64,000 nt of DNA from Eledone cirrhosa (Eukaryota). Positions 7,056-52,985 of the stretch are shown here, piece by piece. The translations under genes and the position numbers were made by a program. Position 1 is the first letter of the stretch, and every line of letters begins with the position of its first letter. A model generated the notes under the pieces. It was not told the DNA's origin and made no database searches. It worked only from the letters and a program-made list of their open reading frames with translations. The stretch is from NCBI GenBank assembly GCA_964016885.1, contig CAXHJY010001169.1, forward strand, positions 1 to 64,000, read 5' to 3'.

Positions 7056-7145
7056 AGTGAAAAATTGAACGGGAACAAAACAGAGAGGCAGTACGAACAA
7101 AGGTTTATTAATTTCACGCTCTTGAGAGTGGGGTGGTGGTGGGGA

Positions 7146-18018: not shown

Positions 18019-19640
<1,622 letters not shown>

Positions 19641-19953: not shown

Positions 19954-19995
19954 CGTTGCTGATGATAGCTAATAAGCTTGAAACTAGTACAGCGT
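19953..19995 (+). ncRNA. Type I hammerhead ribozyme (family C)
   Basis: ACGTTG-CTGATGA-T-AGCT(AATA)AGCT-T-GAAA-CTAG-TA-CAGCGT. Confidence 0.88.
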
Positions 19996-20372: not shown

Positions 20373-20415
20373 ACGTTGCTGATGATAGCTAATAAGCTTG
20401 AAACTAGTACAGCGT
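20373..20415 (+). ncRNA. Type I hammerhead ribozyme (family C, second copy, extended helix I)
   Basis: Identical core. Flanks GTTCAACA..CTGGCAGGAAGG / CCTTTGTCAG-TGTTGAAC extend helix I. Confidence 0.88.
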
Positions 20416-20681
20416 TCCTTTGTCAGTGTTGAACAAACGAGCAACGATGGTTGCTGGACACTACGGCTTAATACGGGATGTTTGTTTACAAACACACCGA
20501 GCATTATAATAAATGTTCGGTGAATCCATACGTACATATATATATGTGTGCATGTATGTATATACATATACATACTACTGTACGTCTGTATACATATATG
20601 TATGTACGTGTACATACTTATATTTAAGTAACAGCCGTACTAAGAGTGGGAAATGAAATTTCATTTCATTTTTCCTGTTTA

Positions 20682-21740
<1,059 letters not shown>

Positions 21741-26205: not shown

Positions 26206-26991
26206 ATATAAAGAAAAAGAGATGAAATCGAAAATGCAACTGGAGTCTTATTTTTTTAAAAATATATATATTTATTTGGTTCCTTTACCGGTTTCGCAGT
26301 TCTTCTGCTTTTCAAAAGTAGAGTTAAGATGGAGGGTTTGTGGTTTTTCTCACATCTGGTTGGTATCTGAATGTTACCTTTTTTATATGGAAAAAATGGC
26401 TCGAAATGCCAGGTTTTTCGAGAAGTAATTTGATTGGTTGGTCAATAATTACAATAAATTTCGCGCCAGTTCGCATTACAATAGTTCTTCAAATAAGATG
26501 GGGGGGGGGGGGGGGGGGGTTGTCACAGGTTGTATTTTCATATATGAGTGTTTGAATTTCTTTTTACTTGAAAAAAGGGGCTCACAAGGCTCTTTTTTTT
26601 GGTTATAAATGAAATTATGGCTGTCACGTGAACAAGTTTTCATTAAATTTTCGCACCCTTATTTGGAAATCCATTTTGTAGCTTTTTTAGAGAATTTTAT
26701 GATAAGTAAAAGTTAATGGTCAAGAGAAATGGGATGGGAGAATTGTTCTGGTTCAGTGAATATGGTTAGTTCGCTGGGGTGTCAGAATTCAGATTTTCTA
26801 TTGAATAAAGAAAGTAAAGATATGTATGTTTATTTGTGTGCTTGTGTGTGTGTGTGTGTGTGTGTGTTGTGTGTGTGTGTTTGAATTTCTTTTTACTTAA
26901 AAAAAAGGTGGCTGACGAAGGGTTTTTTTCAAATCACGTTTATTAAAAAAAGCCTTCGTGAGCCACCTTTTTTTTAAGTAAAAAGAAATTC

Positions 26992-27079
<88 letters not shown>

Positions 27080-27780
27080 AGCACACAAATAAACATACAT
27101 ATCTTTACTTTCTTTATTCAATAGAAAGCCTGAATTCTGACACCCCAGCGAACTAACCATGTTCACTGAACCAGAACAATTCCCCATCCCGTTTCTCTTG
27201 ACCATTATCTTTTACTTATCATAAAATTCTCTAAAAGGGCTACAAAATGGATTTCCAAATAAGGGCGCGAAAATTTAATGAAAACTTGTTCACGTGACAG
27301 CCATAATTTCATTTATAACCAAAAAAAAAAAAAAAAAAAAAAAGCCTTCGTGAGCCCCTTTTTTCAAGTAAAAAGAAATTCAAACACTCATATATGAAAA
27401 AACAACCTGTGACAACCGCCCCCCTCTTCTTTGAAGAACTATTGTAACGTGAACTGGCGCGAAATTTATTATAGTTATTGACCAACCAATCAAATTACTT
27501 CTCGAAAAACCTGGCATTTCGAGCCACTTTGTCCATATAAAACAAGTAACATTCAGAGACCAACTAGATGTGAGAAAACCACAGACCCTCCATCTCAACT
27601 CTACTTTTGAAAAGCAGAAGAACTGCGAAACCGGTAAAGGAACCAAATAAATATATATATTTAAAACAAATAAGACTCCAGTTGCATTTTTGATTTCATC
27701 TCTTTTTCTTTATACTTTCACTCGTGTAGGACACCTCGGTTATTTTTCAATTTGTAAAAAAAACCTCACTTTCTAATATT
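26206..27780. mobile_element. Head-to-head inverted pair of family D element (arms ~26206-26930 / 26945-27780) with internal (CA)n and a U3-A8 HHR
   Basis: Arms are reverse complements with many differences. + strand 27604-27639: CTT-TTGAAAA-GCAG(AAGAA)CTGC-GAAA-CCGG-TA-AAG, then AATAAA. Confidence 0.82.
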
Positions 27781-28440
<660 letters not shown>

Positions 28441-28443
<3 letters not shown>

Positions 28444-28649
28444 TTAGAAAGTGAGGTTTTTTTTTACAAAATGAAAAATAACCGAGGTGTCCTACACGAG
28501 TGGAAGTATAAAGAAAAAGGGATGAAATCGAAAATGCAACTGAAGTCTTATTTTTTTTTTTAAATATATATATTTATTTGGTTCCTTTACCGGTTTCGCA
28601 GTTCTTCTGCTTTTCAAAAGGTGAGTTGAGATGGAGGGTCTGTGGTTTT
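28441..28649 (-). mobile_element. Family D 3' terminal fragment with U3-A8 HHR (28584-28621), fused to the 310 bp array
   Basis: Reverse complement of ~27575-27780; helix I CCTT/AAGG. Confidence 0.8.
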
Positions 28650-28679
28650 ACAGAAATTTTACAGAATTTAGAAATTTTA

Positions 28680-31600
28680 CAGAAATTAGAAATTGGAATA
28701 AATGCTCTGAAATAGCGATATATATGTGAATATAGACATAGAATATTCGAAAATATTCTGTATGTTTATAATAAACATTTTGAAGACCTAATCGCTATAG
28801 AATAGAATACGTCACGTATTACAATTAGATTCTCGATAAAAGCAAGGGAAGTAATCTACGCGTTTCATTCTTGTTAGAAATCATCAGGACTACATATCCA
28901 GTGCTTTTATCGAGAATGACACAGCTAGAGACTTATAGAATACTTAGCTGTGTACAGGAACTGGTTTGAAAGAGCGGTTGCCGGTCCGGCAGAAATTAGA
29001 AATTGGAATAAATGCTCTGAAATAGCGATATATATGTGAATATAGACATAGAATATTCGAAAATATTCTGTATGTTTATAATAAACATTTTGAAGACCTA
29101 ATCGCTATAGAATAGAATACGTCACGTATTACAATTAGATTCTCGATAAAAGCAAGGGAAGTAATCTACGCGTTTCATTCTTGTTAGAAATCATCAGGAC
29201 TACATATCCAGTGCTTTTATCGAGAATGACACAGCTAGAGACTTATAGAATACTTAGCTGTGTACAGGAACTGGTTTGAAAGAGCGGTTGCCGGTCCGGC
29301 AGAAATTAGAAATTGGAATAAATGCTCTGAAATAGCGATATATATGTGAATATAGACATAGAATATTCGAAAATATTCTGTATGTTTATAATAAACATTT
29401 TGAAGACCTAATCGCTATAGAATAGAATACGTCACGTATTACAATTAGATTCTCGATAAAAGCAAGGGAAGTAATCTACGCGTTTCATTCTTGTTAGAAA
29501 TCATCAGGACTACATATCCAGTGCTTTTATCGAGAATGACACAGCTAGAGACTTATAGAATACTTAGCTGTGTACAGGAACTGGTTTGAAAGAGCGGTTG
29601 CCGGTCCGGCAGAAATTAGAAATTGGAATAAATGCTCTGAAATAGCGATATATATGTGAATATAGACATAGAATATTCGAAAATATTCTGTATGTTTATA
29701 ATAAACATTTTGAAGACCTAATCGCTATAGAATAGAATACGTCACGTATTACAATTAGATTCTCGATAAAAGCAAGGGAAGTAATCTACGCGTTTCATTC
29801 TTGTTAGAAATCATCAGGACTACATATCCAGTGCTTTTATCGAGAATGACACAGCTAGAGACTTATAGAATACTTAGCTGTGTACAGGAACTGGTTTGAA
29901 AGAGCGGTTGCCGGTCCGGCAGAAATTAGAAATTGGAATAAATGCTCTGAAATAGCGATATATATGTGAATATAGACATAGAATATTCGAAAATATTCTG
30001 TATGTTTATAATAAACATTTTGAAGACCTAATCGCTATAGAATAGAATACGTCACGTATTACAATTAGATTCTCGATAAAAGCAAGGGAAGTAATCTACG
30101 CGTTTCATTCTTGTTAGAAATCATCAGGACTACATATCCAGTGCTTTTATCGAGAATGACACAGCTAGAGACTTATAGAATACTTAGCTGTGTACAGGAA
30201 CTGGTTTGAAAGAGCGGTTGCCGGTCCGGCAGAAATTAGAAATTGGAATAAATGCTCTGAAATAGCGATATATATGTGAATATAGACATAGAATATTCGA
30301 AAATATTCTGTATGTTTATAATAAACATTTTGAAGACCTAATCGCTATAGAATAGAATACGTCACGTATTACAATTAGATTCTCGATAAAAGCAAGGGAA
30401 GTAATCTACGCGTTTCATTCTTGTTAGAAATCATCAGGACTACATATCCAGTGCTTTTATCGAGAATGACACAGCTAGAGACTTATAGAATACTTAGCTG
30501 TGTACAGGAACTGGTTTGAAAGAGCGGTTGCCGGTCCGGCAGAAATTAGAAATTGGAATAAATGCTCTGAAATAGCGATATATATGTGAATATAGACATA
30601 GAATATTCGAAAATATTCTGTATGTTTATAATAAACATTTTGAAGACCTAATCGCTATAGAATAGAATACGTCACGTATTACAATTAGATTCTCGATAAA
30701 AGCAAGGGAAGTAATCTACGCGTTTCATTCTTGTTAGAAATCATCAGGACTACATATCCAGTGCTTTTATCGAGAATGACACAGCTAGAGACTTATAGAA
30801 TACTTAGCTGTGTACAGGAACTGGTTTGAAAGAGCGGTTGCCGGTCCGGCAGAAATTAGAAATTGGAATAAATGCTCTGAAATAGCGATATATATGTGAA
30901 TATAGACATAGAATATTCGAAAATATTCTGTATGTTTATAATAAACATTTTGAAAACCTAATCGCTATAGAATAGAATACGTCACGTATTACAATTAGAT
31001 TCTCGATAAAAGCAAGGGAAGTAATCTAGGCGTTTCATTCTTGTTAGAAATCATCAGGACTACATATCCAGTGCTTTTATCGAGAATGACACAGCTAGAG
31101 ACTTATAGAATACTTAGCTGTGTACAGGAACTGGTTTGAAAGAGCGGTTGCCGGTCCGGCAGAAATTAGAAATTGGAATAAATGCTCTGAAATAGCGATA
31201 TATATGTGAATATAGACATAGAATATTCGAAAATATTCTGTATGTTTATAATAAACATTTTGAAGACCTAATCGCTATAGAATAGAATACGTCACGTATT
31301 ACAATTAGATTCTCGATAAAAGCAAGGGAAGTAATCTACGCGTTTCATTCTTGTTAGAAATCATCAGGACTACATATCCAGTGCTTTTATCGAGAATGAC
31401 ACAGCTAGAGACTTATAGAATACTTAGCTGTGTACAGGAACTGGTTTGAAAGAGCGGTTGCCGGTCCGGCAGAAATTAGAAATTGGAATAAATGCTCTGA
31501 AATAGCGATATATATGTGAATATAGACATAGAATATTCGAAAATATTCTGTATGTTTATAATAAACATTTTGAAGACCTAATCGCTATAGAATAGAATAC

Positions 31601-34600
31601 GTCACGTATTACAATTAGATTCTCGATAAAAGCAAGGGAAGTAATCTACGCGTTTCATTCTTGTTAGAAATCATCAGGACTACATATCCAGTGCTTTTAT
31701 CGAGAATGACACAGCTAGAGACTTATAGAATACTTAGCTGTGTACAGGAACTGGTTTGAAAGAGCGGTTGCCGGTCCGGCAGAAATTAGAAATTGGAATA
31801 AATGCTCTGAAATAGCGATATATATGTGAATATAGACATAGAATATTCGAAAATATTCTGTATGTTTATAATAAACATTTTGAAGACCTAATCGCTATAG
31901 AATAGAATACGTCACGTATTACAATTAGATTCTCGATAAAAGCAAGGGAAGTAATCTACGCGTTTCATTCTTGTTAGAAATCATCAGGACTACATATCCA
32001 GTGCTTTTATCGAGAATGACACAGCTAGAGACTTATAGAATACTTAGCTGTGTACAGGAACTGGTTTGAAAGAGCGGTTGCCGGTCCGGCAGAAATTAGA
32101 AATTGGAATAAATGCTCTGAAATAGCGATATATATGTGAATATAGACATAGAATATTCGAAAATATTCTGTATGTTTATAATAAACATTTTGAAGACCTA
32201 ATCGCTATAGAATAGAATACGTCACGTATTACAATTAGATTCTCGATAAAAGCAAGGGAAGTAATCTACGCGTTTCATTCTTGTTAGAAATCATCAGGAC
32301 TACATATCCAGTGCTTTTATCGAGAATGACACAGCTAGAGACTTATAGAATACTTAGCTGTGTACAGGAACTGGTTTGAAAGAGCGGTTGCCGGTCCGGC
32401 AGAAATTAGAAATTGGAATAAATGCTCTGAAATAGCGATATATATGTGAATATAGACATAGAATATTCGAAAATATTCTGTATGTTTATAATAAACATTT
32501 TGAAGACCTAATCGCTATAGAATAGAATACGTCACGTATTACAATTAGATTCTCGATAAAAGCAAGGGAAGTAATCTACGCGTTTCATTCTTGTTAGAAA
32601 TCATCAGGACTACATATCCAGTGCTTTTATCGAGAATGACACAGCTAGAGACTTATAGAATACTTAGCTGTGTACAGGAACTGGTTTGAAAGAGCGGTTG
32701 CCGGTCCGGCAGAAATTAGAAATTGGAATAAATGCTCTGAAATAGCGATATATATGTGAATATAGACATAGAATATTCGAAAATATTCTGTATGTTTATA
32801 ATAAACATTTTGAAGACCTAATCGCTATAGAATAGAATACGTCACGTATTACAATTAGATTCTCGATAAAAGCAAGGGAAGTAATCTACGCGTTTCATTC
32901 TTGTTAGAAATCATCAGGACTACATATCCAGTGCTTTTATCGAGAATGACACAGCTAGAGACTTATAGAATACTTAGCTGTGTACAGGAACTGGTTTGAA
33001 AGAGCGGTTGCCGGTCCGGCAGAAATTAGAAATTGGAATAAATGCTCTGAAATAGCGATATATATGTGAATATAGACATAGAATATTCGAAAATATTCTG
33101 TATGTTTATAATAAACATTTTGAAGACCTAATCGCTATAGAATAGAATACGTCACGTATTACAATTAGATTCTCGATAAAAGCAAGGGAAGTAATCTACG
33201 CGTTTCATTCTTGTTAGAAATCATCAGGACTACATATCCAGTGCTTTTATCGAGAATGACACAGCTAGAGACTTATAGAATACTTAGCTGTGTACAGGAA
33301 CTGGTTTGAAAGAGCGGTTGCCGGTCCGGCAGAAATTAGAAATTGGAATAAATGCTCTGAAATAGCGATATATATGTGAATATAGACATAGAATATTCGA
33401 AAATATTCTGTATGTTTATAATAAACATTTTGAAGACCTAATCGCTATAGAATAGAATACGTCACGTATTACAATTAGATTCTCGATAAAAGCAAGGGAA
33501 GTAATCTACGCGTTTCATTCTTGTTAGAAATCATCAGGACTACATATCCAGTGCTTTTATCGAGAATGACACAGCTAGAGACTTATAGAATACTTAGCTG
33601 TGTACAGGAACTGGTTTGAAAGAGCGGTTGCCGGTCCGGCAGAAATTAGAAATTGGAATAAATGCTCTGAAATAGCGATATATATGTGAATATAGACATA
33701 GAATATTCGAAAATATTCTGTATGTTTATAATAAACATTTTGAAGACCTAATCGCTATAGAATAGAATACGTCACGTATTACAATTAGATTCTCGATAAA
33801 AGCAAGGGAAGTAATCTACGCGTTTCATTCTTGTTAGAAATCATCAGGACTACATATCCAGTGCTTTTATCGAGAATGACACAGCTAGAGACTTATAGAA
33901 TACTTAGCTGTGTACAGGAACTGGTTTGAAAGAGCGGTTGCCGGTCCGGCAGAAATTAGAAATTGGAATAAATGCTCTGAAATAGCGATATATATGTGAA
34001 TATAGACATAGAATATTCGAAAATATTCTGTATGTTTATAATAAACATTTTGAAGACCTAATCGCTATAGAATAGAATACGTCACGTATTACAATTAGAT
34101 TCTCGATAAAAGCAAGGGAAGTAATCTACGCGTTTCATTCTTGTTAGAAATCATCAGGACTACATATCCAGTGCTTTTATCGAGAATGACACAGCTAGAG
34201 ACTTATAGAATACTTAGCTGTGTACAGGAACTGGTTTGAAAGAGCGGTTGCCGGTCCGGCAGAAATTAGAAATTGGAATAAATGCTCTGAAATAGCGATA
34301 TATATGTGAATATAGACATAGAATATTCGAAAATATTCTGTATGTTTATAATAAACATTTTGAAGACCTAATCGCTATAGAATAGAATACGTCACGTATT
34401 ACAATTAGATTCTCGATAAAAGCAAGGGAAGTAATCTACGCGTTTCATTCTTGTTAGAAATCATCAGGACTACATATCCAGTGCTTTTATCGAGAATGAC
34501 ACAGCTAGAGACTTATAGAATACTTAGCTGTGTACAGGAACTGGTTTGAAAGAGCGGTTGCCGGTCCGGCAGAAATTAGAAATTGGAATAAATGCTCTGA

Positions 34601-37249
34601 AATAGCGATATATATGTGAATATAGACATAGAATATTCGAAAATATTCTGTATGTTTATAATAAACATTTTGAAGACCTAATCGCTATAGAATAGAATAC
34701 GTCACGTATTACAATTAGATTCTCGATAAAAGCAAGGGAAGTAATCTACGCGTTTCATTCTTGTTAGAAATCATCAGGACTACATATCCAGTGCTTTTAT
34801 CGAGAATGACACAGCTAGAGACTTATAGAATACTTAGCTGTGTACAGGAACTGGTTTGAAAGAGCGGTTGCCGGTCCGGCAGAAATTAGAAATTGGAATA
34901 AATGCTCTGAAATAGCGATATATATGTGAATATAGACATAGAATATTCGAAAATATTCTGTATGTTTATAATAAACATTTTGAAGACCTAATCGCTATAG
35001 AATAGAATACGTCACGTATTACAATTAGATTCTCGATAAAAGCAAGGGAAGTAATCTACGCGTTTCATTCTTGTTAGAAATCATCAGGACTACATATCCA
35101 GTGCTTTTATCGAGAATGACACAGCTAGAGACTTATAGAATACTTAGCTGTGTACAGGAACTGGTTTGAAAGAGCGGTTGCCGGTCCGGCAGAAATTAGA
35201 AATTGGAATAAATGCTCTGAAATAGCGATATATATGTGAATATAGACATAGAATATTCGAAAATATTCTGTATGTTTATAATAAACATTTTGAAGACCTA
35301 ATCGCTATAGAATAGAATACGTCACGTATTACAATTAGATTCTCGATAAAAGCAAGGGAAGTAATCTACGCGTTTCATTCTTGTTAGAAATCATCAGGAC
35401 TACATATCCAGTGCTTTTATCGAGAATGACACAGCTAGAGACTTATAGAATACTTAGCTGTGTACAGGAACTGGTTTGAAAGAGCGGTTGCCGGTCCGGC
35501 AGAAATTAGAAATTGGAATAAATGCTCTGAAATAGCGATATATATGTGAATATAGACATAGAATATTCGAAAATATTCTGTATGTTTATAATAAACATTT
35601 TGAAGACCTAATCGCTATAGAATAGAATACGTCACGTATTACAATTAGATTCTCGATAAAAGCAAGGGAAGTAATCTACGCGTTTCATTCTTGTTAGAAA
35701 TCATCAGGACTACATATCCAGTGCTTTTATCGAGAATGACACAGCTAGAGACTTATAGAATACTTAGCTGTGTACAGGAACTGGTTTGAAAGAGCGGTTG
35801 CCGGTCCGGCAGAAATTAGAAATTGGAATAAATGCTCTGAAATAGCGATATATATGTGAATATAGACATAGAATATTCGAAAATATTCTGTATGTTTATA
35901 ATAAACATTTTGAAGACCTAATCGCTATAGAATAGAATACGTCACGTATTACAATTAGATTCTCGATAAAAGCAAGGGAAGTAATCTACGCGTTTCATTC
36001 TTGTTAGAAATCATCAGGACTACATATCCAGTGCTTTTATCGAGAATGACACAGCTAGAGACTTATAGAATACTTAGCTGTGTACAGGAACTGGTTTGAA
36101 AGAGCGGTTGCCGGTCCGGCAGAAATTAGAAATTGGAATAAATGCTCTGAAATAGCGATATATATGTGAATATAGACATAGAATATTCGAAAATATTCTG
36201 TATGTTTATAATAAACATTTTGAAGACCTAATCGCTATAGAATAGAATACGTCACGTATTACAATTAGATTCTCGATAAAAGCAAGGGAAGTAATCTACG
36301 CGTTTCATTCTTGTTAGAAATCATCAGGACTACATATCCAGTGCTTTTATCGAGAATGACACAGCTAGAGACTTATAGAATACTTAGCTGTGTACAGGAA
36401 CTGGTTTGAAAGAGCGGTTGCCGGTCCGGCAGAAATTAGAAATTGGAATAAATGCTCTGAAATAGCGATATATATGTGAATATAGACATAGAATATTCGA
36501 AAATATTCTGTATGTTTATAATAAACATTTTGAAGACCTAATCGCTATAGAATAGAATACGTCACGTATTACAATTAGATTCTCGATAAAAGCAAGGGAA
36601 GTAATCTACGCGTTTCATTCTTGTTAGAAATCATCAGGACTACATATCCAGTGCTTTTATCGAGAATGACACAGCTAGAGACTTATAGAATACTTAGCTG
36701 TGTACAGGAACTGGTTTGAAAGAGCGGTTGCCGGTCCGGCAGAAATTAGAAATTGGAATAAATGCTCTGAAATAGCGATATATATGTGAATATAGACATA
36801 GAATATTCGAAAATATTCTGTATGTTTATAATAAACATTTTGAAGACCTAATCGCTATAGAATAGAATACGTCACGTATTACAATTAGATTCTCGATAAA
36901 AGCAAGGGAAGTAATCTACGCGTTTCATTCTTGTTAGAAATCATCAGGACTACATATCCAGTGCTTTTATCGAGAATGACACAGCTAGAGACTTATAGAA
37001 TACTTAGCTGTGTACAGGAACTGGTTTGAAAGAGCGGTTGCCGGTCCGGCAGAAATTAGAAATTGGAATAAATGCTCTGAAATAGCGATATATATGTGAA
37101 TATAGACATAGAATATTCGAAAATATTCTGTATGTTTATAATAAACATTTTGAAGACCTAATCGCTATAGAATAGAATACGTCACGTATTACAATTAGAT
37201 TCTCGATAAAAGCAAGGGAAGTAATCTACGCGTTTCATTCTTGTTAGAA
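28680..37249 (-). repeat. 310 bp tandem array, left arm (27 full units + 199 bp); HHR on minus strand
   Basis: AGAAATTAGAAATTGG recurs at 28681, 28991 ... 37051. Only variants seen: 30955 G>A and 31029 C>G. Confidence 0.98.
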
Positions 37250-40200
37250 CAGAATATTTTCGAATATTCTATGTCTATATTCACATATATATCGCTATTT
37301 CAGAGCATTTATTCCAATTTCTAATTTCTGCCGGACCGGCAACCGCTCTTTCAAACCAGTTCCTGTACACAGCTAAGTATTCTATAAGTCTCTAGCTGTG
37401 TCATTCTCGATAAAAGCACTGGATATGTAGTCCTGATGATTTCTAACAAGAATGAAACGCGTAGATTACTTCCCTTGCTTTTATCGAGAATCTAATTGTA
37501 ATACGTGACGTATTCTATTCTATAGCGATTAGGTCTTCAAAATGTTTATTATAAACATACAGAATATTTTCGAATATTCTATGTCTATATTCACATATAT
37601 ATCGCTATTTCAGAGCATTTATTCCAATTTCTAATTTCTGCCGGACCGGCAACCGCTCTTTCAAACCAGTTCCTGTACACAGCTAAGTATTCTATAAGTC
37701 TCTAGCTGTGTCATTCTCGATAAAAGCACTGGATATGTAGTCCTGATGATTTCTAACAAGAATGAAACGCGTAGATTACTTCCCTTGCTTTTATCGAGAA
37801 TCTAATTGTAATACGTGACGTATTCTATTCTATAGCGATTAGGTCTTCAAAATGTTTATTATAAACATACAGAATATTTTCGAATATTCTATGTCTATAT
37901 TCACATATATATCGCTATTTCAGAGCATTTATTCCAATTTCTAATTTCTGCCGGACCGGCAACCGCTCTTTCAAACCAGTTCCTGTACACAGCTAAGTAT
38001 TCTATAAGTCTCTAGCTGTGTCATTCTCGATAAAAGCACTGGATATGTAGTCCTGATGATTTCTAACAAGAATGAAACGCGTAGATTACTTCCCTTGCTT
38101 TTATCGAGAATCTAATTGTAATACGTGACGTATTCTATTCTATAGCGATTAGGTCTTCAAAATGTTTATTATAAACATACAGAATATTTTCGAATATTCT
38201 ATGTCTATATTCACATATATATCGCTATTTCAGAGCATTTATTCCAATTTCTAATTTCTGCCGGACCGGCAACCGCTCTTTCAAACCAGTTCCTGTACAC
38301 AGCTAAGTATTCTATAAGTCTCTAGCTGTGTCATTCTCGATAAAAGCACTGGATATGTAGTCCTGATGATTTCTAACAAGAATGAAACGCGTAGATTACT
38401 TCCCTTGCTTTTATCGAGAATCTAATTGTAATACGTGACGTATTCTATTCTATAGCGATTAGGTCTTCAAAATGTTTATTATAAACATACAGAATATTTT
38501 CGAATATTCTATGTCTATATTCACATATATATCGCTATTTCAGAGCATTTATTCCAATTTCTAATTTCTGCCGGACCGGCAACCGCTCTTTCAAACCAGT
38601 TCCTGTACACAGCTAAGTATTCTATAAGTCTCTAGCTGTGTCATTCTCGATAAAAGCACTGGATATGTAGTCCTGATGATTTCTAACAAGAATGAAACGC
38701 GTAGATTACTTCCCTTGCTTTTATCGAGAATCTAATTGTAATACGTGACGTATTCTATTCTATAGCGATTAGGTCTTCAAAATGTTTATTATAAACATAC
38801 AGAATATTTTCGAATATTCTATGTCTATATTCACATATATATCGCTATTTCAGAGCATTTATTCCAATTTCTAATTTCTGCCGGACCGGCAACCGCTCTT
38901 TCAAACCAGTTCCTGTACACAGCTAAGTATTCTATAAGTCTCTAGCTGTGTCATTCTCGATAAAAGCACTGGATATGTAGTCCTGATGATTTCTAACAAG
39001 AATGAAACGCGTAGATTACTTCCCTTGCTTTTATCGAGAATCTAATTGTAATACGTGACGTATTCTATTCTATAGCGATTAGGTCTTCAAAATGTTTATT
39101 ATAAACATACAGAATATTTTCGAATATTCTATGTCTATATTCACATATATATCGCTATTTCAGAGCATTTATTCCAATTTCTAATTTCTGCCGGACCGGC
39201 AACCGCTCTTTCAAACCAGTTCCTGTACACAGCTAAGTATTCTATAAGTCTCTAGCTGTGTCATTCTCGATAAAAGCACTGGATATGTAGTCCTGATGAT
39301 TTCTAACAAGAATGAAACGCGTAGATTACTTCCCTTGCTTTTATCGAGAATCTAATTGTAATACGTGACGTATTCTATTCTATAGCGATTAGGTCTTCAA
39401 AATGTTTATTATAAACATACAGAATATTTTCGAATATTCTATGTCTATATTCACATATATATCGCTATTTCAGAGCATTTATTCCAATTTCTAATTTCTG
39501 CCGGACCGGCAACCGCTCTTTCAAACCAGTTCCTGTACACAGCTAAGTATTCTATAAGTCTCTAGCTGTGTCATTCTCGATAAAAGCACTGGATATGTAG
39601 TCCTGATGATTTCTAACAAGAATGAAACGCGTAGATTACTTCCCTTGCTTTTATCGAGAATCTAATTGTAATACGTGACGTATTCTATTCTATAGCGATT
39701 AGGTCTTCAAAATGTTTATTATAAACATACAGAATATTTTCGAATATTCTATGTCTATATTCACATATATATCGCTATTTCAGAGCATTTATTCCAATTT
39801 CTAATTTCTGCCGGACCGGCAACCGCTCTTTCAAACCAGTTCCTGTACACAGCTAAGTATTCTATAAGTCTCTAGCTGTGTCATTCTCGATAAAAGCACT
39901 GGATATGTAGTCCTGATGATTTCTAACAAGAATGAAACGCGTAGATTACTTCCCTTGCTTTTATCGAGAATCTAATTGTAATACGTGACGTATTCTATTC
40001 TATAGCGATTAGGTCTTCAAAATGTTTATTATAAACATACAGAATATTTTCGAATATTCTATGTCTATATTCACATATATATCGCTATTTCAGAGCATTT
40101 ATTCCAATTTCTAATTTCTGCCGGACCGGCAACCGCTCTTTCAAACCAGTTCCTGTACACAGCTAAGTATTCTATAAGTCTCTAGCTGTGTCATTCTCGA

Positions 40201-43200
40201 TAAAAGCACTGGATATGTAGTCCTGATGATTTCTAACAAGAATGAAACGCGTAGATTACTTCCCTTGCTTTTATCGAGAATCTAATTGTAATACGTGACG
40301 TATTCTATTCTATAGCGATTAGGTCTTCAAAATGTTTATTATAAACATACAGAATATTTTCGAATATTCTATGTCTATATTCACATATATATCGCTATTT
40401 CAGAGCATTTATTCCAATTTCTAATTTCTGCCGGACCGGCAACCGCTCTTTCAAACCAGTTCCTGTACACAGCTAAGTATTCTATAAGTCTCTAGCTGTG
40501 TCATTCTCGATAAAAGCACTGGATATGTAGTCCTGATGATTTCTAACAAGAATGAAACGCGTAGATTACTTCCCTTGCTTTTATCGAGAATCTAATTGTA
40601 ATACGTGACGTATTCTATTCTATAGCGATTAGGTCTTCAAAATGTTTATTATAAACATACAGAATATTTTCGAATATTCTATGTCTATATTCACATATAT
40701 ATCGCTATTTCAGAGCATTTATTCCAATTTCTAATTTCTGCCGGACCGGCAACCGCTCTTTCAAACCAGTTCCTGTACACAGCTAAGTATTCTATAAGTC
40801 TCTAGCTGTGTCATTCTCGATAAAAGCACTGGATATGTAGTCCTGATGATTTCTAACAAGAATGAAACGCGTAGATTACTTCCCTTGCTTTTATCGAGAA
40901 TCTAATTGTAATACGTGACGTATTCTATTCTATAGCGATTAGGTCTTCAAAATGTTTATTATAAACATACAGAATATTTTCGAATATTCTATGTCTATAT
41001 TCACATATATATCGCTATTTCAGAGCATTTATTCCAATTTCTAATTTCTGCCGGACCGGCAACCGCTCTTTCAAACCAGTTCCTGTACACAGCTAAGTAT
41101 TCTATAAGTCTCTAGCTGTGTCATTCTCGATAAAAGCACTGGATATGTAGTCCTGATGATTTCTAACAAGAATGAAACGCGTAGATTACTTCCCTTGCTT
41201 TTATCGAGAATCTAATTGTAATACGTGACGTATTCTATTCTATAGCGATTAGGTCTTCAAAATGTTTATTATAAACATACAGAATATTTTCGAATATTCT
41301 ATGTCTATATTCACATATATATCGCTATTTCAGAGCATTTATTCCAATTTCTAATTTCTGCCGGACCGGCAACCGCTCTTTCAAACCAGTTCCTGTACAC
41401 AGCTAAGTATTCTATAAGTCTCTAGCTGTGTCATTCTCGATAAAAGCACTGGATATGTAGTCCTGATGATTTCTAACAAGAATGAAACGCGTAGATTACT
41501 TCCCTTGCTTTTATCGAGAATCTAATTGTAATACGTGACGTATTCTATTCTATAGCGATTAGGTCTTCAAAATGTTTATTATAAACATACAGAATATTTT
41601 CGAATATTCTATGTCTATATTCACATATATATCGCTATTTCAGAGCATTTATTCCAATTTCTAATTTCTGCCGGACCGGCAACCGCTCTTTCAAACCAGT
41701 TCCTGTACACAGCTAAGTATTCTATAAGTCTCTAGCTGTGTCATTCTCGATAAAAGCACTGGATATGTAGTCCTGATGATTTCTAACAAGAATGAAACGC
41801 GTAGATTACTTCCCTTGCTTTTATCGAGAATCTAATTGTAATACGTGACGTATTCTATTCTATAGCGATTAGGTCTTCAAAATGTTTATTATAAACATAC
41901 AGAATATTTTCGAATATTCTATGTCTATATTCACATATATATCGCTATTTCAGAGCATTTATTCCAATTTCTAATTTCTGCCGGACCGGCAACCGCTCTT
42001 TCAAACCAGTTCCTGTACACAGCTAAGTATTCTATAAGTCTCTAGCTGTGTCATTCTCGATAAAAGCACTGGATATGTAGTCCTGATGATTTCTAACAAG
42101 AATGAAACGCGTAGATTACTTCCCTTGCTTTTATCGAGAATCTAATTGTAATACGTGACGTATTCTATTCTATAGCGATTAGGTCTTCAAAATGTTTATT
42201 ATAAACATACAGAATATTTTCGAATATTCTATGTCTATATTCACATATATATCGCTATTTCAGAGCATTTATTCCAATTTCTAATTTCTGCCGGACCGGC
42301 AACCGCTCTTTCAAACCAGTTCCTGTACACAGCTAAGTATTCTATAAGTCTCTAGCTGTGTCATTCTCGATAAAAGCACTGGATATGTAGTCCTGATGAT
42401 TTCTAACAAGAATGAAACGCGTAGATTACTTCCCTTGCTTTTATCGAGAATCTAATTGTAATACGTGACGTATTCTATTCTATAGCGATTAGGTCTTCAA
42501 AATGTTTATTATAAACATACAGAATATTTTCGAATATTCTATGTCTATATTCACATATATATCGCTATTTCAGAGCATTTATTCCAATTTCTAATTTCTG
42601 CCGGACCGGCAACCGCTCTTTCAAACCAGTTCCTGTACACAGCTAAGTATTCTATAAGTCTCTAGCTGTGTCATTCTCGATAAAAGCACTGGATATGTAG
42701 TCCTGATGATTTCTAACAAGAATGAAACGCGTAGATTACTTCCCTTGCTTTTATCGAGAATCTAATTGTAATACGTGACGTATTCTATTCTATAGCGATT
42801 AGGTCTTCAAAATGTTTATTATAAACATACAGAATATTTTCGAATATTCTATGTCTATATTCACATATATATCGCTATTTCAGAGCATTTATTCCAATTT
42901 CTAATTTCTGCCGGACCGGCAACCGCTCTTTCAAACCAGTTCCTGTACACAGCTAAGTATTCTATAAGTCTCTAGCTGTGTCATTCTCGATAAAAGCACT
43001 GGATATGTAGTCCTGATGATTTCTAACAAGAATGAAACGCGTAGATTACTTCCCTTGCTTTTATCGAGAATCTAATTGTAATACGTGACGTATTCTATTC
43101 TATAGCGATTAGGTCTTCAAAATGTTTATTATAAACATACAGAATATTTTCGAATATTCTATGTCTATATTCACATATATATCGCTATTTCAGAGCATTT

Positions 43201-46200
43201 ATTCCAATTTCTAATTTCTGCCGGACCGGCAACCGCTCTTTCAAACCAGTTCCTGTACACAGCTAAGTATTCTATAAGTCTCTAGCTGTGTCATTCTCGA
43301 TAAAAGCACTGGATATGTAGTCCTGATGATTTCTAACAAGAATGAAACGCGTAGATTACTTCCCTTGCTTTTATCGAGAATCTAATTGTAATACGTGACG
43401 TATTCTATTCTATAGCGATTAGGTCTTCAAAATGTTTATTATAAACATACAGAATATTTTCGAATATTCTATGTCTATATTCACATATATATCGCTATTT
43501 CAGAGCATTTATTCCAATTTCTAATTTCTGCCGGACCGGCAACCGCTCTTTCAAACCAGTTCCTGTACACAGCTAAGTATTCTATAAGTCTCTAGCTGTG
43601 TCATTCTCGATAAAAGCACTGGATATGTAGTCCTGATGATTTCTAACAAGAATGAAACGCGTAGATTACTTCCCTTGCTTTTATCGAGAATCTAATTGTA
43701 ATACGTGACGTATTCTATTCTATAGCGATTAGGTCTTCAAAATGTTTATTATAAACATACAGAATATTTTCGAATATTCTATGTCTATATTCACATATAT
43801 ATCGCTATTTCAGAGCATTTATTCCAATTTCTAATTTCTGCCGGACCGGCAACCGCTCTTTCAAACCAGTTCCTGTACACAGCTAAGTATTCTATAAGTC
43901 TCTAGCTGTGTCATTCTCGATAAAAGCACTGGATATGTAGTCCTGATGATTTCTAACAAGAATGAAACGCGTAGATTACTTCCCTTGCTTTTATCGAGAA
44001 TCTAATTGTAATACGTGACGTATTCTATTCTATAGCGATTAGGTCTTCAAAATGTTTATTATAAACATACAGAATATTTTCGAATATTCTATGTCTATAT
44101 TCACATATATATCGCTATTTCAGAGCATTTATTCCAATTTCTAATTTCTGCCGGACCGGCAACCGCTCTTTCAAACCAGTTCCTGTACACAGCTAAGTAT
44201 TCTATAAGTCTCTAGCTGTGTCATTCTCGATAAAAGCACTGGATATGTAGTCCTGATGATTTCTAACAAGAATGAAACGCGTAGATTACTTCCCTTGCTT
44301 TTATCGAGAATCTAATTGTAATACGTGACGTATTCTATTCTATAGCGATTAGGTCTTCAAAATGTTTATTATAAACATACAGAATATTTTCGAATATTCT
44401 ATGTCTATATTCACATATATATCGCTATTTCAGAGCATTTATTCCAATTTCTAATTTCTGCCGGACCGGCAACCGCTCTTTCAAACCAGTTCCTGTACAC
44501 AGCTAAGTATTCTATAAGTCTCTAGCTGTGTCATTCTCGATAAAAGCACTGGATATGTAGTCCTGATGATTTCTAACAAGAATGAAACGCGTAGATTACT
44601 TCCCTTGCTTTTATCGAGAATCTAATTGTAATACGTGACGTATTCTATTCTATAGCGATTAGGTCTTCAAAATGTTTATTATAAACATACAGAATATTTT
44701 CGAATATTCTATGTCTATATTCACATATATATCGCTATTTCAGAGCATTTATTCCAATTTCTAATTTCTGCCGGACCGGCAACCGCTCTTTCAAACCAGT
44801 TCCTGTACACAGCTAAGTATTCTATAAGTCTCTAGCTGTGTCATTCTCGATAAAAGCACTGGATATGTAGTCCTGATGATTTCTAACAAGAATGAAACGC
44901 GTAGATTACTTCCCTTGCTTTTATCGAGAATCTAATTGTAATACGTGACGTATTCTATTCTATAGCGATTAGGTCTTCAAAATGTTTATTATAAACATAC
45001 AGAATATTTTCGAATATTCTATGTCTATATTCACATATATATCGCTATTTCAGAGCATTTATTCCAATTTCTAATTTCTGCCGGACCGGCAACCGCTCTT
45101 TCAAACCAGTTCCTGTACACAGCTAAGTATTCTATAAGTCTCTAGCTGTGTCATTCTCGATAAAAGCACTGGATATGTAGTCCTGATGATTTCTAACAAG
45201 AATGAAACGCGTAGATTACTTCCCTTGCTTTTATCGAGAATCTAATTGTAATACGTGACGTATTCTATTCTATAGCGATTAGGTCTTCAAAATGTTTATT
45301 ATAAACATACAGAATATTTTCGAATATTCTATGTCTATATTCACATATATATCGCTATTTCAGAGCATTTATTCCAATTTCTAATTTCTGCCGGACCGGC
45401 AACCGCTCTTTCAAACCAGTTCCTGTACACAGCTAAGTATTCTATAAGTCTCTAGCTGTGTCATTCTCGATAAAAGCACTGGATATGTAGTCCTGATGAT
45501 TTCTAACAAGAATGAAACGCGTAGATTACTTCCCTTGCTTTTATCGAGAATCTAATTGTAATACGTGACGTATTCTATTCTATAGCGATTAGGTCTTCAA
45601 AATGTTTATTATAAACATACAGAATATTTTCGAATATTCTATGTCTATATTCACATATATATCGCTATTTCAGAGCATTTATTCCAATTTCTAATTTCTG
45701 CCGGACCGGCAACCGCTCTTTCAAACCAGTTCCTGTACACAGCTAAGTATTCTATAAGTCTCTAGCTGTGTCATTCTCGATAAAAGCACTGGATATGTAG
45801 TCCTGATGATTTCTAACAAGAATGAAACGCGTAGATTACTTCCCTTGCTTTTATCGAGAATCTAATTGTAATACGTGACGTATTCTATTCTATAGCGATT
45901 AGGTCTTCAAAATGTTTATTATAAACATACAGAATATTTTCGAATATTCTATGTCTATATTCACATATATATCGCTATTTCAGAGCATTTATTCCAATTT
46001 CTAATTTCTGCCGGACCGGCAACCGCTCTTTCAAACCAGTTCCTGTACACAGCTAAGTATTCTATAAGTCTCTAGCTGTGTCATTCTCGATAAAAGCACT
46101 GGATATGTAGTCCTGATGATTTCTAACAAGAATGAAACGCGTAGATTACTTCCCTTGCTTTTATCGAGGATCTAATTGTAATACGTGACGTATTCTATTC

Positions 46201-46930
46201 TATAGCGATTAGGTCTTCAAAATGTTTATTATAAACATACAGAATATTTTCGAATATTCTATGTCTATATTCACATATATATCGCTATTTCAGAGCATTT
46301 ATTCCAATTTCTAATTTCTGCCGGACCGGCAACCGCTCTTTCAAACCAGTTCCTGTACACAGCTAAGTATTCTATAAGTCTCTAGCTGTGTCATTCTCGA
46401 TAAAAGCACTGGATATGTAGTCCTGATGATTTCTAACAAGAATGAAACGCGTAGATTACTTCCCTTGCTTTTATCGAGAATCTAATTGTAATACGTGACG
46501 TATTCTATTCTATAGCGATTAGGTCTTCAAAATGTTTATTATAAACATACAGAATATTTTCGAATATTCTATGTCTATATTCACATATATATCGCTATTT
46601 CAGAGCATTTATTCCAATTTCTAATTTCTGCCGGACCGGCAACCGCTCTTTCAAACCAGTTCCTGTACACAGCTAAGTATTCTATAAGTCTCTAGCTGTG
46701 TCATTCTCGATAAAAGCACTGGATATGTAGTCCTGATGATTTCTAACAAGAATGAAACGCGTAGATTACTTCCCTTGCTTTTATCGAGAATCTAATTGTA
46801 ATACGTGACGTATTCTATTCTATAGCGATTAGGTCTTCAAAATGTTTATTATAAACATACAGAATATTTTCGAATATTCTATGTCTATATTCACATATAT
46901 ATCGCTATTTCAGAGCATTTATTCCAATTT
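37250..46930 (+). repeat. 310 bp tandem array, right arm, inverted (31 full units + 71 bp); HHR on plus strand
   Basis: CAGAATATTTTCG recurs at 37250 ... 46860 and is the reverse complement of the left-arm unit. Only variant seen: 46169 A>G. Confidence 0.98.
37403..37491 (+). ncRNA. Type I hammerhead ribozyme in each 310 bp unit (representative; ~58 complete copies)
   Basis: GTAGTC-CTGATGA-T-TTCT(AACA)AGAA-T-GAAA-CGCG-TA-GATTAC with palindromic ACGCGT helix III. Helix I is extended by a perfect 16 bp ATTCTCGATAAAAGCA/TGCTTTTATCGAGAAT stem. Predicted cut after 37463. Confidence 0.88.
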
Positions 46931-46963
46931 ATATATATATATATTTATATATATATATATATG

Positions 46964-47033
<70 letters not shown>

Positions 47034-47180
47034 AGGATTAAAATACTGGAGCGTATTGGTGTTAAACACCCTCTTCGTATTATAGAAATGACAGTAAAAG
47101 GTATAGCTCAATGTAATTAAACAGAGCCGAAGAATTATGAAAATAAAACAAAGAAGCCTTCAATACATCAAAAGTCTTTA

Positions 47181-47225
47181 TTAGCCAACAATGTTTCGTC
47201 CTACTAAGGACTCATCAGGGCAATC
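47181..47225 (-). ncRNA. Type I hammerhead ribozyme of the Naiad-like PLE
   Basis: TTGCC-CTGATGA-GTCCT(TAGT)AGGAC-GAAA-CATTG-TT-GGCTAATAAA. Confidence 0.85.
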
Positions 47226-48897
47226 AAAACCACAAGAAGTACTATCGGCCAATACAAGCCGAAAACTCCGAAGAATATGGAGTGTACATACACTAAAGTA
47301 TTGGAAGATTATGGGTAAAAATATATAATATAAATCACTAAGGGGTGGATAACATTTTGAACCATATTACAAATATAGTCCAAAGCAAAAAAACTAGAGC
47401 TAAACAAAGGTGGTTATATAGAGCGGGAATTATGGTACTATATATAATACAATATAATATAATATAATATACTTGTAACAATATTAAAATTAAAATTAAA
47501 ATTAAAAGGCACAATATGCATATGTATATATGTACGCACACGTACGCACATATAGATATACATCAATACACATTTCCATCATTAACAGCACAAATTAAAC
47601 CTTATTAAGAGTTTAAATATAAATAAGCATAATAGGAATAAAAATAATAATACGTATATCTAATATACAGTATAACATGAAGTAATGAAATGATTAAAAG
47701 TAACACATATAATATATAATAAACTATATAATTATATAATATATAATATAATATAATAGATAATCTCCGGTTAATTTACACAAACAATATAGATGTCACA
47801 ATAATACTATAATAATAATATAATAATATATAATATATAATGGCATGTAAGTTAACAAATCAATTCATATAGAGTTACAGAGTAGGTGAGAAAAAAATAT
47901 AAATTGTACAATACCCAAAATTATGATGGTACAAAAATATAAACATCTTACATGATATATAAAATTTAACATATCATAATGGTACATAAAATCATCGGTA
48001 AGTAATAAGGATCAATAGTACAATAACAACTTCAATATAAAATAATGAACATAATATAATATATAATTACTTATAATTACAAGGTTGGTAAACAGACACA
48101 TATGTGAATGAGTGAATAAGGGCCAGACAGAAAATACTATGCACAGTAGTATTAATAAATAAATAAATAAAATCAACCGGAAATTAAAAAACAAAAACAA
48201 AAGTATTTACTTAGGTCTCACATGCAGTTAAGTAAAAACTTAGGAAACAACCCAGATAAATGACTAGAAAACCCTATTTGATAAATTAATATTGAAAATA
48301 TTTAAAATACCTAATAAGGCAATACAATATTAGCTATGGTTTAAGTAATCAAAATTCTTAAACATTAATATTTCACTATAAATATATATAGAAAGGAATG
48401 AAATATTCTACTATCATTTACATAACGATATCTAAAAAACTGACTTAAGCAGAATTATGGTAGGCTAATAGGGACAGAAAAAAAGAAATGTATAGGGGAA
48501 ACAAAGGAGCATAAAATCATAATCAATATACTGTATTATATAATAGAAAGGAGCATAAAAGAGGGGGGATATTAAATATAATCATAATATATTTGAAGGG
48601 GTTGGCAATAAGTTTATGTGTGCATGGGGAGGGGGGGGGGGGTGTTATCCAAAGAAGAATCCAAATAAAATAAAATAAAATGAAATAAAATAAAATAATA
48701 TAAAATATATAATCAGATATATACTCATAAGGTGTTAATAGTGAAAATTTAATGTGTAAGATAGATATGGTATAGTAGCCAAAAGATTATGAGAGCTAGA
48801 ATAAAAAGTTGTCAAAAACCAATGATAATAATGATGATAATAATGGTGGTAAACAAAAAGAACCTAAACTAAAAAAATAAGTAATGGAATATATCAG

Positions 48898-50661
48898 CTA
48901 ATGGATACAATTTACACTACTAGAACCTTTAGGTTTATAATAAAAGTAAGAATTAGAAATAGCGTGGGGGCAAGAAGAGAATATCTCAGACTTTCTATTA
49001 AGTAAGGATTCACTAGAGAAAATTATAGAGTGTGTCTCGAGGATACAGAGATTACAAAATTTAGTATGTGTAGAAAGGTTATTAGAGCGTGCTACTAAAC
49101 GCCAATTAAGGCTATATGGTATATTAGCCCCCTTAAGATCCCAGATATAGTGTGCTAAAGAAGTAGAATTCTTAAACTTAACATGTTTGAAATTAGAGAT
49201 ATGAGAATTAAACCTAGTCTTAAAAGTGTTAGATGTAGAGCCTATATAAGTTCTATTAGAGGAATTAGTTATAACTACGCAAGCATAGACGATGTTCTTA
49301 GAGAGGCAGTTACCGTTTAAAGGGCAGTTAGCACTCACTCTACAGTTACACTTCCGGGTGCTATTGATTGGCTGAAGTAGTGATGCATTACACGTAGGAT
49401 TACTATTAGATAAGGTCTGCTCTGGTGGTAAGGCATTTGCAGATCTGTTCAGACTAGTAGTATGTAGAGAGGAGTATCCATCCCTAATTTTCCTATTGTT
49501 AGTGCTAGCTAAATGAGAACTAATATTAGGGGTGGTAGAGAATAAAAGTTTAATAACATTTTTATTAAAAATACTATGGTATTTATGAGAAGGGGGGAAA
49601 TTTTTCTCTAATATAGAAAAGAAAGACCTAGGGATATTAATTAATACTTCCTGATTATATGGCGGGTTAAAATAAGTATTTAGTCTCCTTCCATTTTTAT
49701 CCTTTCCGACTCTACCATTATCTAATATCCCATTATTAAGACTAGGGTTATTACAAGGATTAGTTAAAACCGCATTATTAGAATCAGCCAAAATTCCATT
49801 AAGTCACTTTCTGTTTCTACTTCTAGTAGATCTGCTGCTGTCTGGAATCCTATTAAAAGGATTAGGGCAAATAATAGGATCAGTAGAAACAACATTATTA
49901 GAATTAGATCTAGCAAAATCATCACCAATGAGTGAGCGCTCAGAGGGTTCGACTTGATTCCTAGAGGTATTATACTCCCTATTACGAGTCCGGTGGGTTA
50001 ACTTATGGATGGGTTCAGATACACCTATGTAATTTCTACGATTATTATGCTTCCTACTCCCATTCATGGCCATGTTATGGGATATTATGTTATTATTATT
50101 ATAAGTAAGCGGAGACTTTCTAAGGTTACTATTATTATAATGTATTTTACTAGAGTAACCGGAATTAGCTAGGGCATTATTATAGTACTCCGCATGTTCA
50201 TTAAATGTTCCTACGTCCTTAGAGAGTGTAGAAATCCTATTAGATACACCCTTAATTATAGAGCTTATCATAGATTTGGGGTGGTTAGCATTGGGACTAA
50301 CATAACAAAGTATTTCATTAGGCTTATCGAAGGGTTTAAAACTATTAGTGACCAAGTCCAAAGTCACATCTAAAAAGTTGACCGCTCTATCGTTTCTATC
50401 TATCGTGATCGAAAGGTTATAGCTTTTAAAAAACTTATAAAGCTTCTTCTTATTATGCTCGACATTGTTGGTGCTAGAGTTAATAACAAACAATGCATCA
50501 TCACGATATAGTCCGCCATTAAGGTGCGGAAAGGTAACATATAGTTCATTTAGGAGGAACAACCCAACAAGATCAGTTACCTGGGCCGAATCACTCGAAC
50601 CCATTGTAACGTCGAAATTGTTGGGCGTGTTTTTACGGGTCCAAAATGTGTCCTCAAAATT
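48898..50661 (-). pseudogene. PLE RT C-terminal half + expanded linker + GIY-YIG endonuclease; one in-frame TGA at 49804-49806
   Basis: [92 protein letters not shown]. The two listed ORFs are in the same frame. Confidence 0.92.
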
Positions 50662-50695
50662 AATATATATATATATGTATTTATATATATGTATT

Positions 50696-50869: not shown

Positions 50870-52548
<1,679 letters not shown>

Positions 52549-52985
52549 ATGTAAAGTTATATTTAAAATTGTTGGGTTACAACTAGTAAATATTTATAAC
52601 TGTGACCTCTTCAGTGACTGGGGATTTCTTTCTTCGTTTCTGTGCCTTTCCTTTCTTCTATCCTACGCCAAAATGGCGTAGGATAGAAGAAAGGAAAGGC
52701 ACAGAAACGAAGAAAGAAATCCCCAGTCACTGAAGAGGTCACAGAGTGTGTGACGAAAGAACTATGACTATATATATATAAACAACTATCTGGTTGTGGA
52801 ACCAACCAACCAACCAGAAATTTATAAATTTGTAAATTTATAAATATATAATCAATTAAATTGAAGTGAAAGCAACTGGTGCGTGTGTTTCTTATTGGCA
52901 ACATGACCCTCCCAAAGTATAACAATATCGGTTTCAACACACGATTTCAGATAAAGAATCTTGCTAAACAAATTCAGAAACGAAA
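52549..52985 (+). mobile_element. Chimera: family B end (52549-52602, -) + 70 bp-arm foldback + family A terminal repeat with HHR (52725-52769)
   Basis: 52553-52600 matches 21743-21790; 52601-52670 pairs with 52674-52743 around an AAA loop. Confidence 0.85.

Follow-up and report, generated by a model that had tools for sequence, protein, structure and literature searches.

A giant head-to-head retrozyme array in Eledone cirrhosa: evidence consistent with twin priming on a circular RNA

Introduction

How does an array of about 18 kb, built of self-cleaving units in two opposed arms, come to stand between two (TA)n tracts? The question is raised by a locus in Eledone cirrhosa (GenBank assembly GCA_964016885.1, contig CAXHJY010001169.1), analysed here within a stretch of 64,000 nucleotides, hereafter the window. 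A reading of the window from its sequence alone (the sequence-only reading) had proposed that target-primed reverse transcription from (TA)n ends went many times round a circular template, that unequal crossing-over had no part in the growth of the array, and that the enzyme was a highly processive Penelope-like (PLE) reverse transcriptase (RT).

Non-LTR retrozymes are known from metazoans (Cervera and de la Pena 2020, PMC7229834; review PMC7761336; Li et al., bioRxiv 10.64898/2026.07.22.740005). In the accessible parts of this literature, retrozymes are tandem hammerhead units expressed as circles, for which more-than-unit cDNA and mobilisation by PLEs have been proposed (PMC7229834, PMC7761336, PMC4209133, bioRxiv 10.64898/2026.07.22.740005), and unequal crossover is invoked for array growth (bioRxiv 10.64898/2026.07.22.740005). 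The hallmarks of PLEs, as far as the accessible text of the sources goes, are inverted copies with a pLTR, a tail at one end and (TA)n targets (PMC8557442, PMC3846280), and self-priming has been proposed for the inversions (PMC3846280). In vitro, the accessible account describes two adjacent internal RT start sites, with both strands of the target cut and extended (PMC11167929). How animal hammerhead retrozymes spread, and how the inverted ends and tails of PLEs are made, are open questions for which the circle model has been proposed since 2014-2020.

Here, we propose that the array may be one insertion of a non-autonomous hammerhead retroelement, a non-LTR retrozyme, which a Penelope-like enzyme with RT and GIY-YIG domains would have mobilised. 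The proposal is built on the structure of the locus (Table 1), on the family to which it belongs, and on four other histories weighed against it.

Results

The array and its unit

The array is very probably real and present as described, judging from its sequence, and is the largest copy that we met of a very common self-cleaving-RNA retroelement. Tandem Repeats Finder returned it as two 310-bp arrays, 28680-37249 and 37249-46930, each with 99% matches. As the sequence-only reading had it, the arms invert at 37249/37250 without a spacer: they lie head-to-head with a 1-nt overlap that joins unit position 288 to position 96 (positions are numbered from the predicted ribozyme cut), and ribozyme sense runs outward in left and right arm alike. 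The right arm, also as claimed, ends in ...TTCCAATTT and then (TA)n at 46930, at unit position 167, which is the family's long end. The claim that both 3' ends lie at (TA)n therefore holds directly on the right, whereas the left arm stops at unit position 177, a non-canonical end, and reaches (TA)n at 28444 only through a 30-bp filler and 206 bp of another family, D.

Table 1. Features of the array and its immediate surroundings (positions in the window)
Feature	Positions	Strand	Remarks
(TA)n tract, left target end	27776..28444	.	Tandem Repeats Finder
Family D long-end arm	28444..28649	-	3' end of an autonomous, probably Neptune-type PLE; stop at D position 631, in a recurrent stop zone
Patchwork filler	28650..28679	.	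30 bp; short copies of the array's end sequence
Left arm	28680..37249	-	27.6 units; 5' end at unit 288, 3' end at 177; singletons 30955, 31029
Head-to-head inversion junction	37249..37250	.	1-nt overlap
Right arm	37249..46930	+	31.2 units; 5' end at unit 96, 3' end at 167; singleton 46169
Example type I hammerhead	37418..37483	+	one per unit; predicted cut 37463/37464
One unit	37464..37773	+	predicted 310-nt circular RNA
(TA)n tract, right target end	46930..47033	.	
Neighbouring head-to-head family D pair	26210..27776	.	one short and one long end
Neighbouring broken PLE	47034..50664	-	other family; RT, GIY-YIG, own hammerhead near 47212

The homogeneity that had been noticed is borne out by the whole units (cut at the predicted ribozyme site), 54 of 57 of which are identical. 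The other three differ by one substitution each, and none of these substitutions is repeated or mirrored. A higher-order variant pattern, the mark of a recombinational satellite that the sequence-only reading had set against itself, was not seen in the window's array, where these singletons are all the variation found.

With 310 bp and a GC content of about 34%, the unit falls within the range of retrozymes (tandem monomers of 150-450 bp, GC under 45%). Direct reading of the sequence finds the core and helices of a type I hammerhead in each unit, intact in all but one unit of the window: helix I is 6 bp long, helix II has a U-U at its base, and helix III is a 2-bp palindrome. The axolotl HHR_Amex2, in its accessible description, likewise has this U-U and a helix III of 2 bp. 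An Rfam search of the window at gathering scores gave no match, and Hammerhead_HH9 aligns to the core only below threshold (19.2 bits against 52, E 0.015). The unit RNA is strongly self-paired (-72.5 kcal/mol, z = -4.4, with none of 100 shuffles as stable), and LTR-like structure was absent from the fetched loci described below. In three short-read contig sets the unit forms a closed 310-nt loop with no mismatches, which confirms tandem units, not the junctions of the array. By these sequence tests, and by those on insertion described below, the array passes as a non-LTR retrozyme inserted by PLE machinery. The unit also turned up under 17 organism labels; we do not read this as horizontal transfer, since the three contig sets examined show the unit at a depth of only 5-12, which fits trace host DNA.

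A family with two fixed ends

Counted by exact motif patterns, as are all genome counts of units and ends here, the unit has 16,773 matches in the 3.0-Gb genome (about 5 Mb), most of them in small head-to-head arrays scattered through it. An arm stops either at the long end (unit 165-170) or at the short end (130-139), which are 26-40 nt apart, and across the genome the two are about equally frequent at TA (1,270 long and 1,243 short). From end pairing and motif counts we estimate a total of about 1,700 loci. Pairing was scored in the first 218 Mb of C1, a chromosome-scale contig, where 128 of the 195 listed ends form 64 adjacent head-to-head pairs and 67 are unpaired. All 64 pairs are long+short, with no long+long and no short+short.

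The loci fetched for closer study, all from C1 and most of them picked via at least one canonical end, were the 64 pairs, 20 of the 67 unpaired ends (14 variant-flank pairs and 6 single arms) and 12 stretches from a core-motif list. Together with the window's array they give 82 head-to-head junctions, each an inverted 5'-truncated copy with two outward 3' ends, as in PLEs. The junctions are long+short in 81 cases, counting one (L031) whose short end is truncated and not at TA, and the window's array is the sole long+long. A tail at one end only, of 26-40 nt, is thus the rule of the family and is lacking at the window's locus with its two long ends. Nine fetched loci, one of which lies at an assembly gap, have a single arm. 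One locus that duplicates another (L112, of L055) was kept in the 82-junction and variant-calling sets and dropped from the haplotype, arm-length, joint and size tests. Flanks are TA-rich at 147 of the 164 arm ends, which indicates microsatellite or AT-rich targets, and 46 of the 81 short ends belong to the two commonest forms, in which C131 appears as T, the outcome that pairing of a TA primer across a mismatch would predict. The median locus is 2.7 kb long and the median arm 3.5 units, while the largest locus other than the window's measures 15 kb.

That reading had also held that the small elements of the window share the geometry of the array. They do so in being head-to-head and in ending at (TA)n; their ends are long+short in some (D 26210|27776, B 21740|23432 and B 50955|51439) and long+long in one (B 23507|24375). 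The PLE at 47034-50664 was considered as a partner of the array and is not supported as such: its end motif differs and it has no similarity to the unit.

The two arms of a locus are alike in sequence. One haplotype is common to both arms at 71 of 73 loci (shuffled mean 13.9, maximum 27), with fifteen haplotypes over nine common sites, and at 58 of 81 loci a variant is fixed in all covered units of both arms. For nineteen of these variants the call was confined to a single locus, and at least 3 of the nineteen recur elsewhere. A one-locus variant that is fixed in every unit points to a single-unit bottleneck at birth, since a point change carried by one unit of a source array would be fixed in a daughter only if that unit alone gave rise to it; from this we infer that births pass through a monomer. 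Where the arms meet, 68% of the 65 filler-free junctions have microhomology of at least 2 nt, against 18% by chance; filler is present at 16 of 81 junctions. The 5' ends are unevenly distributed round the unit (KS p 0.009), which counts against a purely monomeric circle.

A proposed mechanism

The long+short pairing, the shared haplotypes, the fixed private variants and, as set out below, the lack of stops at the cut site and the clean joints favour twin target-primed reverse transcription of a monomeric circle, which we consider the likely mechanism of the family. Arrays would be transcribed, the ribozyme would cut out 310-nt monomers and ligation would turn these into circles, as the retrozyme literature leads one to expect. 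The enzyme would break a (TA)n tract, and both 3' ends would prime on one circle: the first with little homology at a fixed site that gives the observed long ends, the second 26-40 nt upstream, at the observed short ends, presumably by pairing with an internal AU run. Each cDNA would then circle the template a variable number of times (a median of 3.5 units per arm), and the cDNA ends would be linked through microhomology or a short filler, with each cDNA serving as template for the second strand of the other; the joined structure is what the loci contain, and the chemistry is putative.

At the window's locus, the right cDNA would have started normally and circled the template about 31 times. 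For the left cDNA, the most likely course is a start on the RNA of an autonomous PLE, D, a stall at the usual stop zone of D and a restart on the circle near the long start site, followed by about 28 rounds. As a whole, this account of a retrozyme insertion with twin priming on a circle and a D-to-circle start on the left is the one we lean towards, with modest confidence. Target-primed synthesis round a circle, the core of the sequence-only reading, is consequently well backed for the family by pairing, haplotypes, cut site and joints, and is weaker here, where the left end is a chimera with D.

The left end and the size of the array

Family D, with 10,895 motif matches in the genome and long and short ends of its own 65 nt apart, sits directly downstream of a 770-aa frame that has RT and GIY-YIG domains and a CX4CxxC linker. 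Such a linker is tied to Neptune elements and to microsatellite targeting in the accessible text of PMC8557442, and adjoining this frame marks D, on sequence grounds, as the 3' end of an autonomous Neptune-type PLE. The D piece of the window, 206 bp long, is a typical long-end D arm and is co-oriented with the left arm, as in one continuous cDNA. Among 28 sampled D long-end arms, 13 stop in the zone D615-635, three of them at the window piece's own base (D631), and the array restarts at unit 177, which is 7-12 nt from the long start sites. The exact D/filler/array join has a single match genome-wide, in a count of exact joins only. Between D and the unit, detectable homology is absent and a short end motif is all they have in common. 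When pLTR homology was sought, the unit aligned to the 3' UTRs of the two PLEs tested at shuffle level, and hence the enzyme is not named by homology. That the left end arose by a template jump from D RNA to the circle may be true or false with about equal probability.

The main competitor to this account keeps twin priming on a circle for the birth of a few-unit long+short insertion, and has both arms grow later by unequal exchange or slippage, while a deletion from the centre of a D palindrome took the short end and left an end-joining filler. D palindromes are often centred at D615-635, and a later break there predicts the same D631 endpoint as the jump; patchwork fillers are typical of polymerase-theta end joining. 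For a deletion with a random endpoint, however, the chance of landing no more than about 10 nt from the long start site is only about 7%. For later growth speak all five of the other sampled arms of 15 or more units, which carry repeated or switched variants; an arm of 45 units, for example, shows a partial period of 27 units, and one of 19 units a period of 7. It appears from these that a long arm can undergo remodelling once inserted, or can be copied from a template of several units. The size of the array is a further point in favour of later growth. None of 80 other loci reaches 18 kb, the longest shorter arm elsewhere is 3.4 kb against 8.6 kb here, and among about 1,700 loci the expected number this large runs from 0.06 (gamma fit) to 4 (log-normal fit): the array is an outlier in size, and the giant is the least typical member sampled. 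Against later growth stand the need to expand each of two arms about eightfold and the absence of any repeated variant in the window, a weak test since it rests on 3 variants where 6.5 are expected at the family rate (p 0.11). We regard this history as unlikely.

The claim that crossing-over had no part in array growth fits the unrepeated variants of the window and may not extend to the other long arms, and the claimed processivity draws less support from the giant than the mechanism draws from the family. A mild excess of near-equal arm lengths (p about 0.01) suggests some coupling between the paired cDNAs in certain cases, so that finding both arms long at one locus is less unlikely. Returning to synthesis on a circle, we find it somewhat probable that a single step produced essentially the whole of the window's array, although synthesis of all 59 units at once is unproven. 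In the fullest version, a Penelope-like RT extended both sides of one break for about 59 rounds (18 kb) of one 310-nt circle, making no more than 3 errors, and the left cDNA began on the enzyme's own RNA before it jumped to the circle; this is a tentative proposition that may well be wrong.

Linear templates, fold-back and assembly

A linear template might serve in place of the circle, either as a long uncut read-through transcript of another array or as cut monomers copied with end-to-end template jumps. In the accessible in vitro account, the single PLE studied used mainly uncleaved linear RNA as substrate and insertion had no need of ribozyme cleavage (PMC11167929), an observation that counts against the circle model. 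Among our loci, both arms of L072 switch haplotype after two units and both arms of L061 share a non-fixed variant in the same unit, patterns that fit a multimeric template; L114, which switches in one arm, likewise counts against a purely monomeric circle. Over the 61 variant-unit cases in which the other arm covers the same unit, however, just 8 are shared, from 2 loci. Copying of a cut linear monomer should halt at the cut after no more than 165 nt; this is contradicted by the 162 arms examined, none of which has its 5' end at the cut site though that site is crossed 856 times. Repeated jumping between cut monomers should also scar the joint, as with R2-type RTs, and added bases occur in none of 895 unit joints, only 9 of which differ from their own locus's form. 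Locus-private variants fixed in every unit are a further difficulty for a read-through transcript or a string of monomers, and a daughter copied from a linear source cannot exceed that source in length. We consider a linear template improbable. Two apparent exceptions were discarded: six arms that seemed to stop exactly at the cut site proved by exact extension to be an alignment-boundary artefact, and one-base insertions beside the joint, taken at first sight for ligation scars, are locus-fixed haplotypes common to several loci.

The left arm could also be a fold-back, self-primed copy of the right-arm cDNA, joined to a separately primed D cDNA. This would explain at one stroke the two long ends, the two long arms and a left arm (8.6 kb) shorter than the right (9.7 kb), yet no variant is mirrored and the two singletons of the left arm are missing on the right; the right singleton lies just outside the mirrored span and is uninformative. 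Nor is fold-back the rule of the family, since which arm is longer varies between loci: at 36 of 80 it is the one with the short end, which at 14 is more than twice the length of its partner. For the window's locus it strikes us as highly improbable.

Least of all do we credit an assembly artefact, arising either from fold-back reads or from the merging of two real loci at identical units: for all that the contig is unplaced and 143 kb long, the array a near-perfect palindrome of 18 kb and its ends the sole long+long among 82, its flanks differ between the two sides, unlike those of a fold-back read, neither arm reaches 10 kb, the inversion junction is of the kind usual in the family, 81 small loci on a chromosome-scale contig have this geometry too, and none of 40 candidates scored for the right flank was a second near-identical copy. 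The search for an empty allele, in which the right flank proved to be a repeat, likewise returned no second near-identical copy of the distal flank among those 40 candidates; a target-site duplication, if there is one, would be hidden in (TA)n.

Discussion

The family resembles published retrozymes, in their accessible descriptions, in its tandem low-GC units of ~300 bp, its type I hammerhead and its arrays of dimers to tens of units; 62-mers in coral and arrays of up to 300 units appear in the same accessible reports. Absent from those descriptions are head-to-head two-arm arrays, fixed long and short ends, a (TA)n target and haplotype evidence for a single-unit template. With PLE insertions, as their accessible descriptions have them, it shares an inverted 5'-truncated copy, a tail of 30-40 nt at one end and microsatellite targeting; here, in contrast, both arms are multimers of a non-coding unit, and the tail rule is strict in our sample (64 of 64). 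The long+short rule matches the PLE tail together with the two adjacent RT start sites described in the accessible in vitro account (PMC11167929). Our data favour twin target priming over the self-priming put forward in the accessible text of PMC3846280.

The comparison extends to other elements and to satellites. In L1 twin priming, the second target end primes internally and the inversion is joined by microhomology, much as we see here; L1, however, uses its linear poly(A) RNA once, and its two products cover different parts of that RNA and are not known to be multimeric. A satellite built by recombination is likewise a long homogeneous tandem array, and repeated variants are seen in the longest arms of the family. 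Unlike such a satellite, the family is spread over more than 1,000 short, dispersed arrays whose ends are fixed and whose inverted arms share one haplotype.

Our literature search, from which subscription papers were mostly out of reach, returned no account of head-to-head retrozyme multimers or of PLE twin priming and no published genomic test of the circle model. The circle model and the inverted and tailed geometry are each already in the literature; the two-armed long+short rule and the haplotype evidence appear to be new. The family turns the circle model into countable predictions, most of which hold in about 80 loci, and it offers a defined substrate (a 310-nt circle, two start sites and a TA target) along with a candidate enzyme with long open frames.

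What might follow if the one-reaction reading is right? Satellite-sized arrays could then be born homogeneous without recombination, PLE RTs would be processive strand-displacing enzymes on circular RNA, and the long+short, one-haplotype rule would stand as a general mechanism for the inversions and tails of PLEs. If, moreover, the left cDNA jumped from the RNA of its own enzyme, the Neptune-type D would be that enzyme. Elsewhere in the window, at 52547-52608, two families are again joined in line, as a second chimera, at a TA tract.

Family D and other Penelope-like elements

Family D, whose sequence lies next to the left arm of the array, is the 3'-terminal part of an autonomous Penelope-like element (PLE), P0003, which has an RT, a CX4CxxC linker and a GIY-YIG. 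At locus L154, a tailed inverted copy, the ORF and an untailed end are all present. The tail, the extra length of the longer of two alternative 3' ends at TA, is ~65 nt in this PLE, whereas 30-40 nt is usual for PLEs. A canonical hammerhead pattern was looked for in its 3' UTR and was not found. Across L129-L165, D arms frequently stop within D615-635 (13 of 28 long-end and 6 of 22 short-end arms), hence the many palindromes of ~350 bp.

The window itself holds a broken PLE that contains a long Asn-rich insert and, near 47212, a canonical hammerhead of its own; in its relatives elsewhere in the genome, the open frames span 900-1,080 aa. Just upstream, a family B pair lies within TA.

Coordinates of the features described
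Location	Feature
Window 7000-10000	GC-rich segment
Window 19640-19953	Diverged relative of array unit
Window 19951-20682	Hammerhead-like family, first pair
Window 54826-55697	Hammerhead-like family, second pair
Window 47034-50664	Broken PLE, CxCX5C (Hydra-like) linker
Window 50955-51439	Family B pair
Window 52547-52985	B/A fusion
L154:737-5178; L155	P0003
L034:3099-3370	272-bp segment at inversion junction
L112 and L055 (G000:C1:56259900-56264300)	Duplicated insertion
L072 (G000:C1:136719497-136725883)	Haplotype switch
L100-L101 (G000:C1:97461503-97476456)	45-unit arm

Chimeras, junctions and unit variants

The B/A fusion is a second two-family chimera: a family A arm is fused in line to ~55 bp of a family B long end, the two meeting at a TA tract where they share 3 nt of microhomology. 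The family A arms here form a perfect palindrome at 52672.

Among the fetched loci, the inversion junction of L034 is occupied by 272 bp of unrelated GC-rich DNA, possibly a captured template. L031 and L038 share an identical junction (unit 250/13) in two haplotypes, and this junction uses a 16-bp inverted repeat internal to the unit. L112 and L055 are a single insertion in two tandem copies with an identical junction.

Among the haplotype changes, the most frequent lie within unit positions 276-295 and 2-3, counted from the predicted ribozyme cut. At these sites the ribozyme tolerates change (core N7, loop II, helix I and the base of helix II), and core-breaking changes were observed only as singletons. 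In L072, the outer two units of both arms carry one common haplotype and the units beyond them carry another. In the 45-unit arm of L100-L101, linked variants repeat at a partial 27-unit period.

Other observations in the window

The diverged relative of the array unit, slightly longer than one unit, is 77% identical to it over 70 nt; it terminates at TA, and its end motif resembles that of the unit. Another hammerhead-like family occurs as two tandem copies at ~420-bp spacing (99% over 312 bp), and again as a second pair. The GC-rich segment is 60% GC with strong G skew, the rest of the window being AT-rich.
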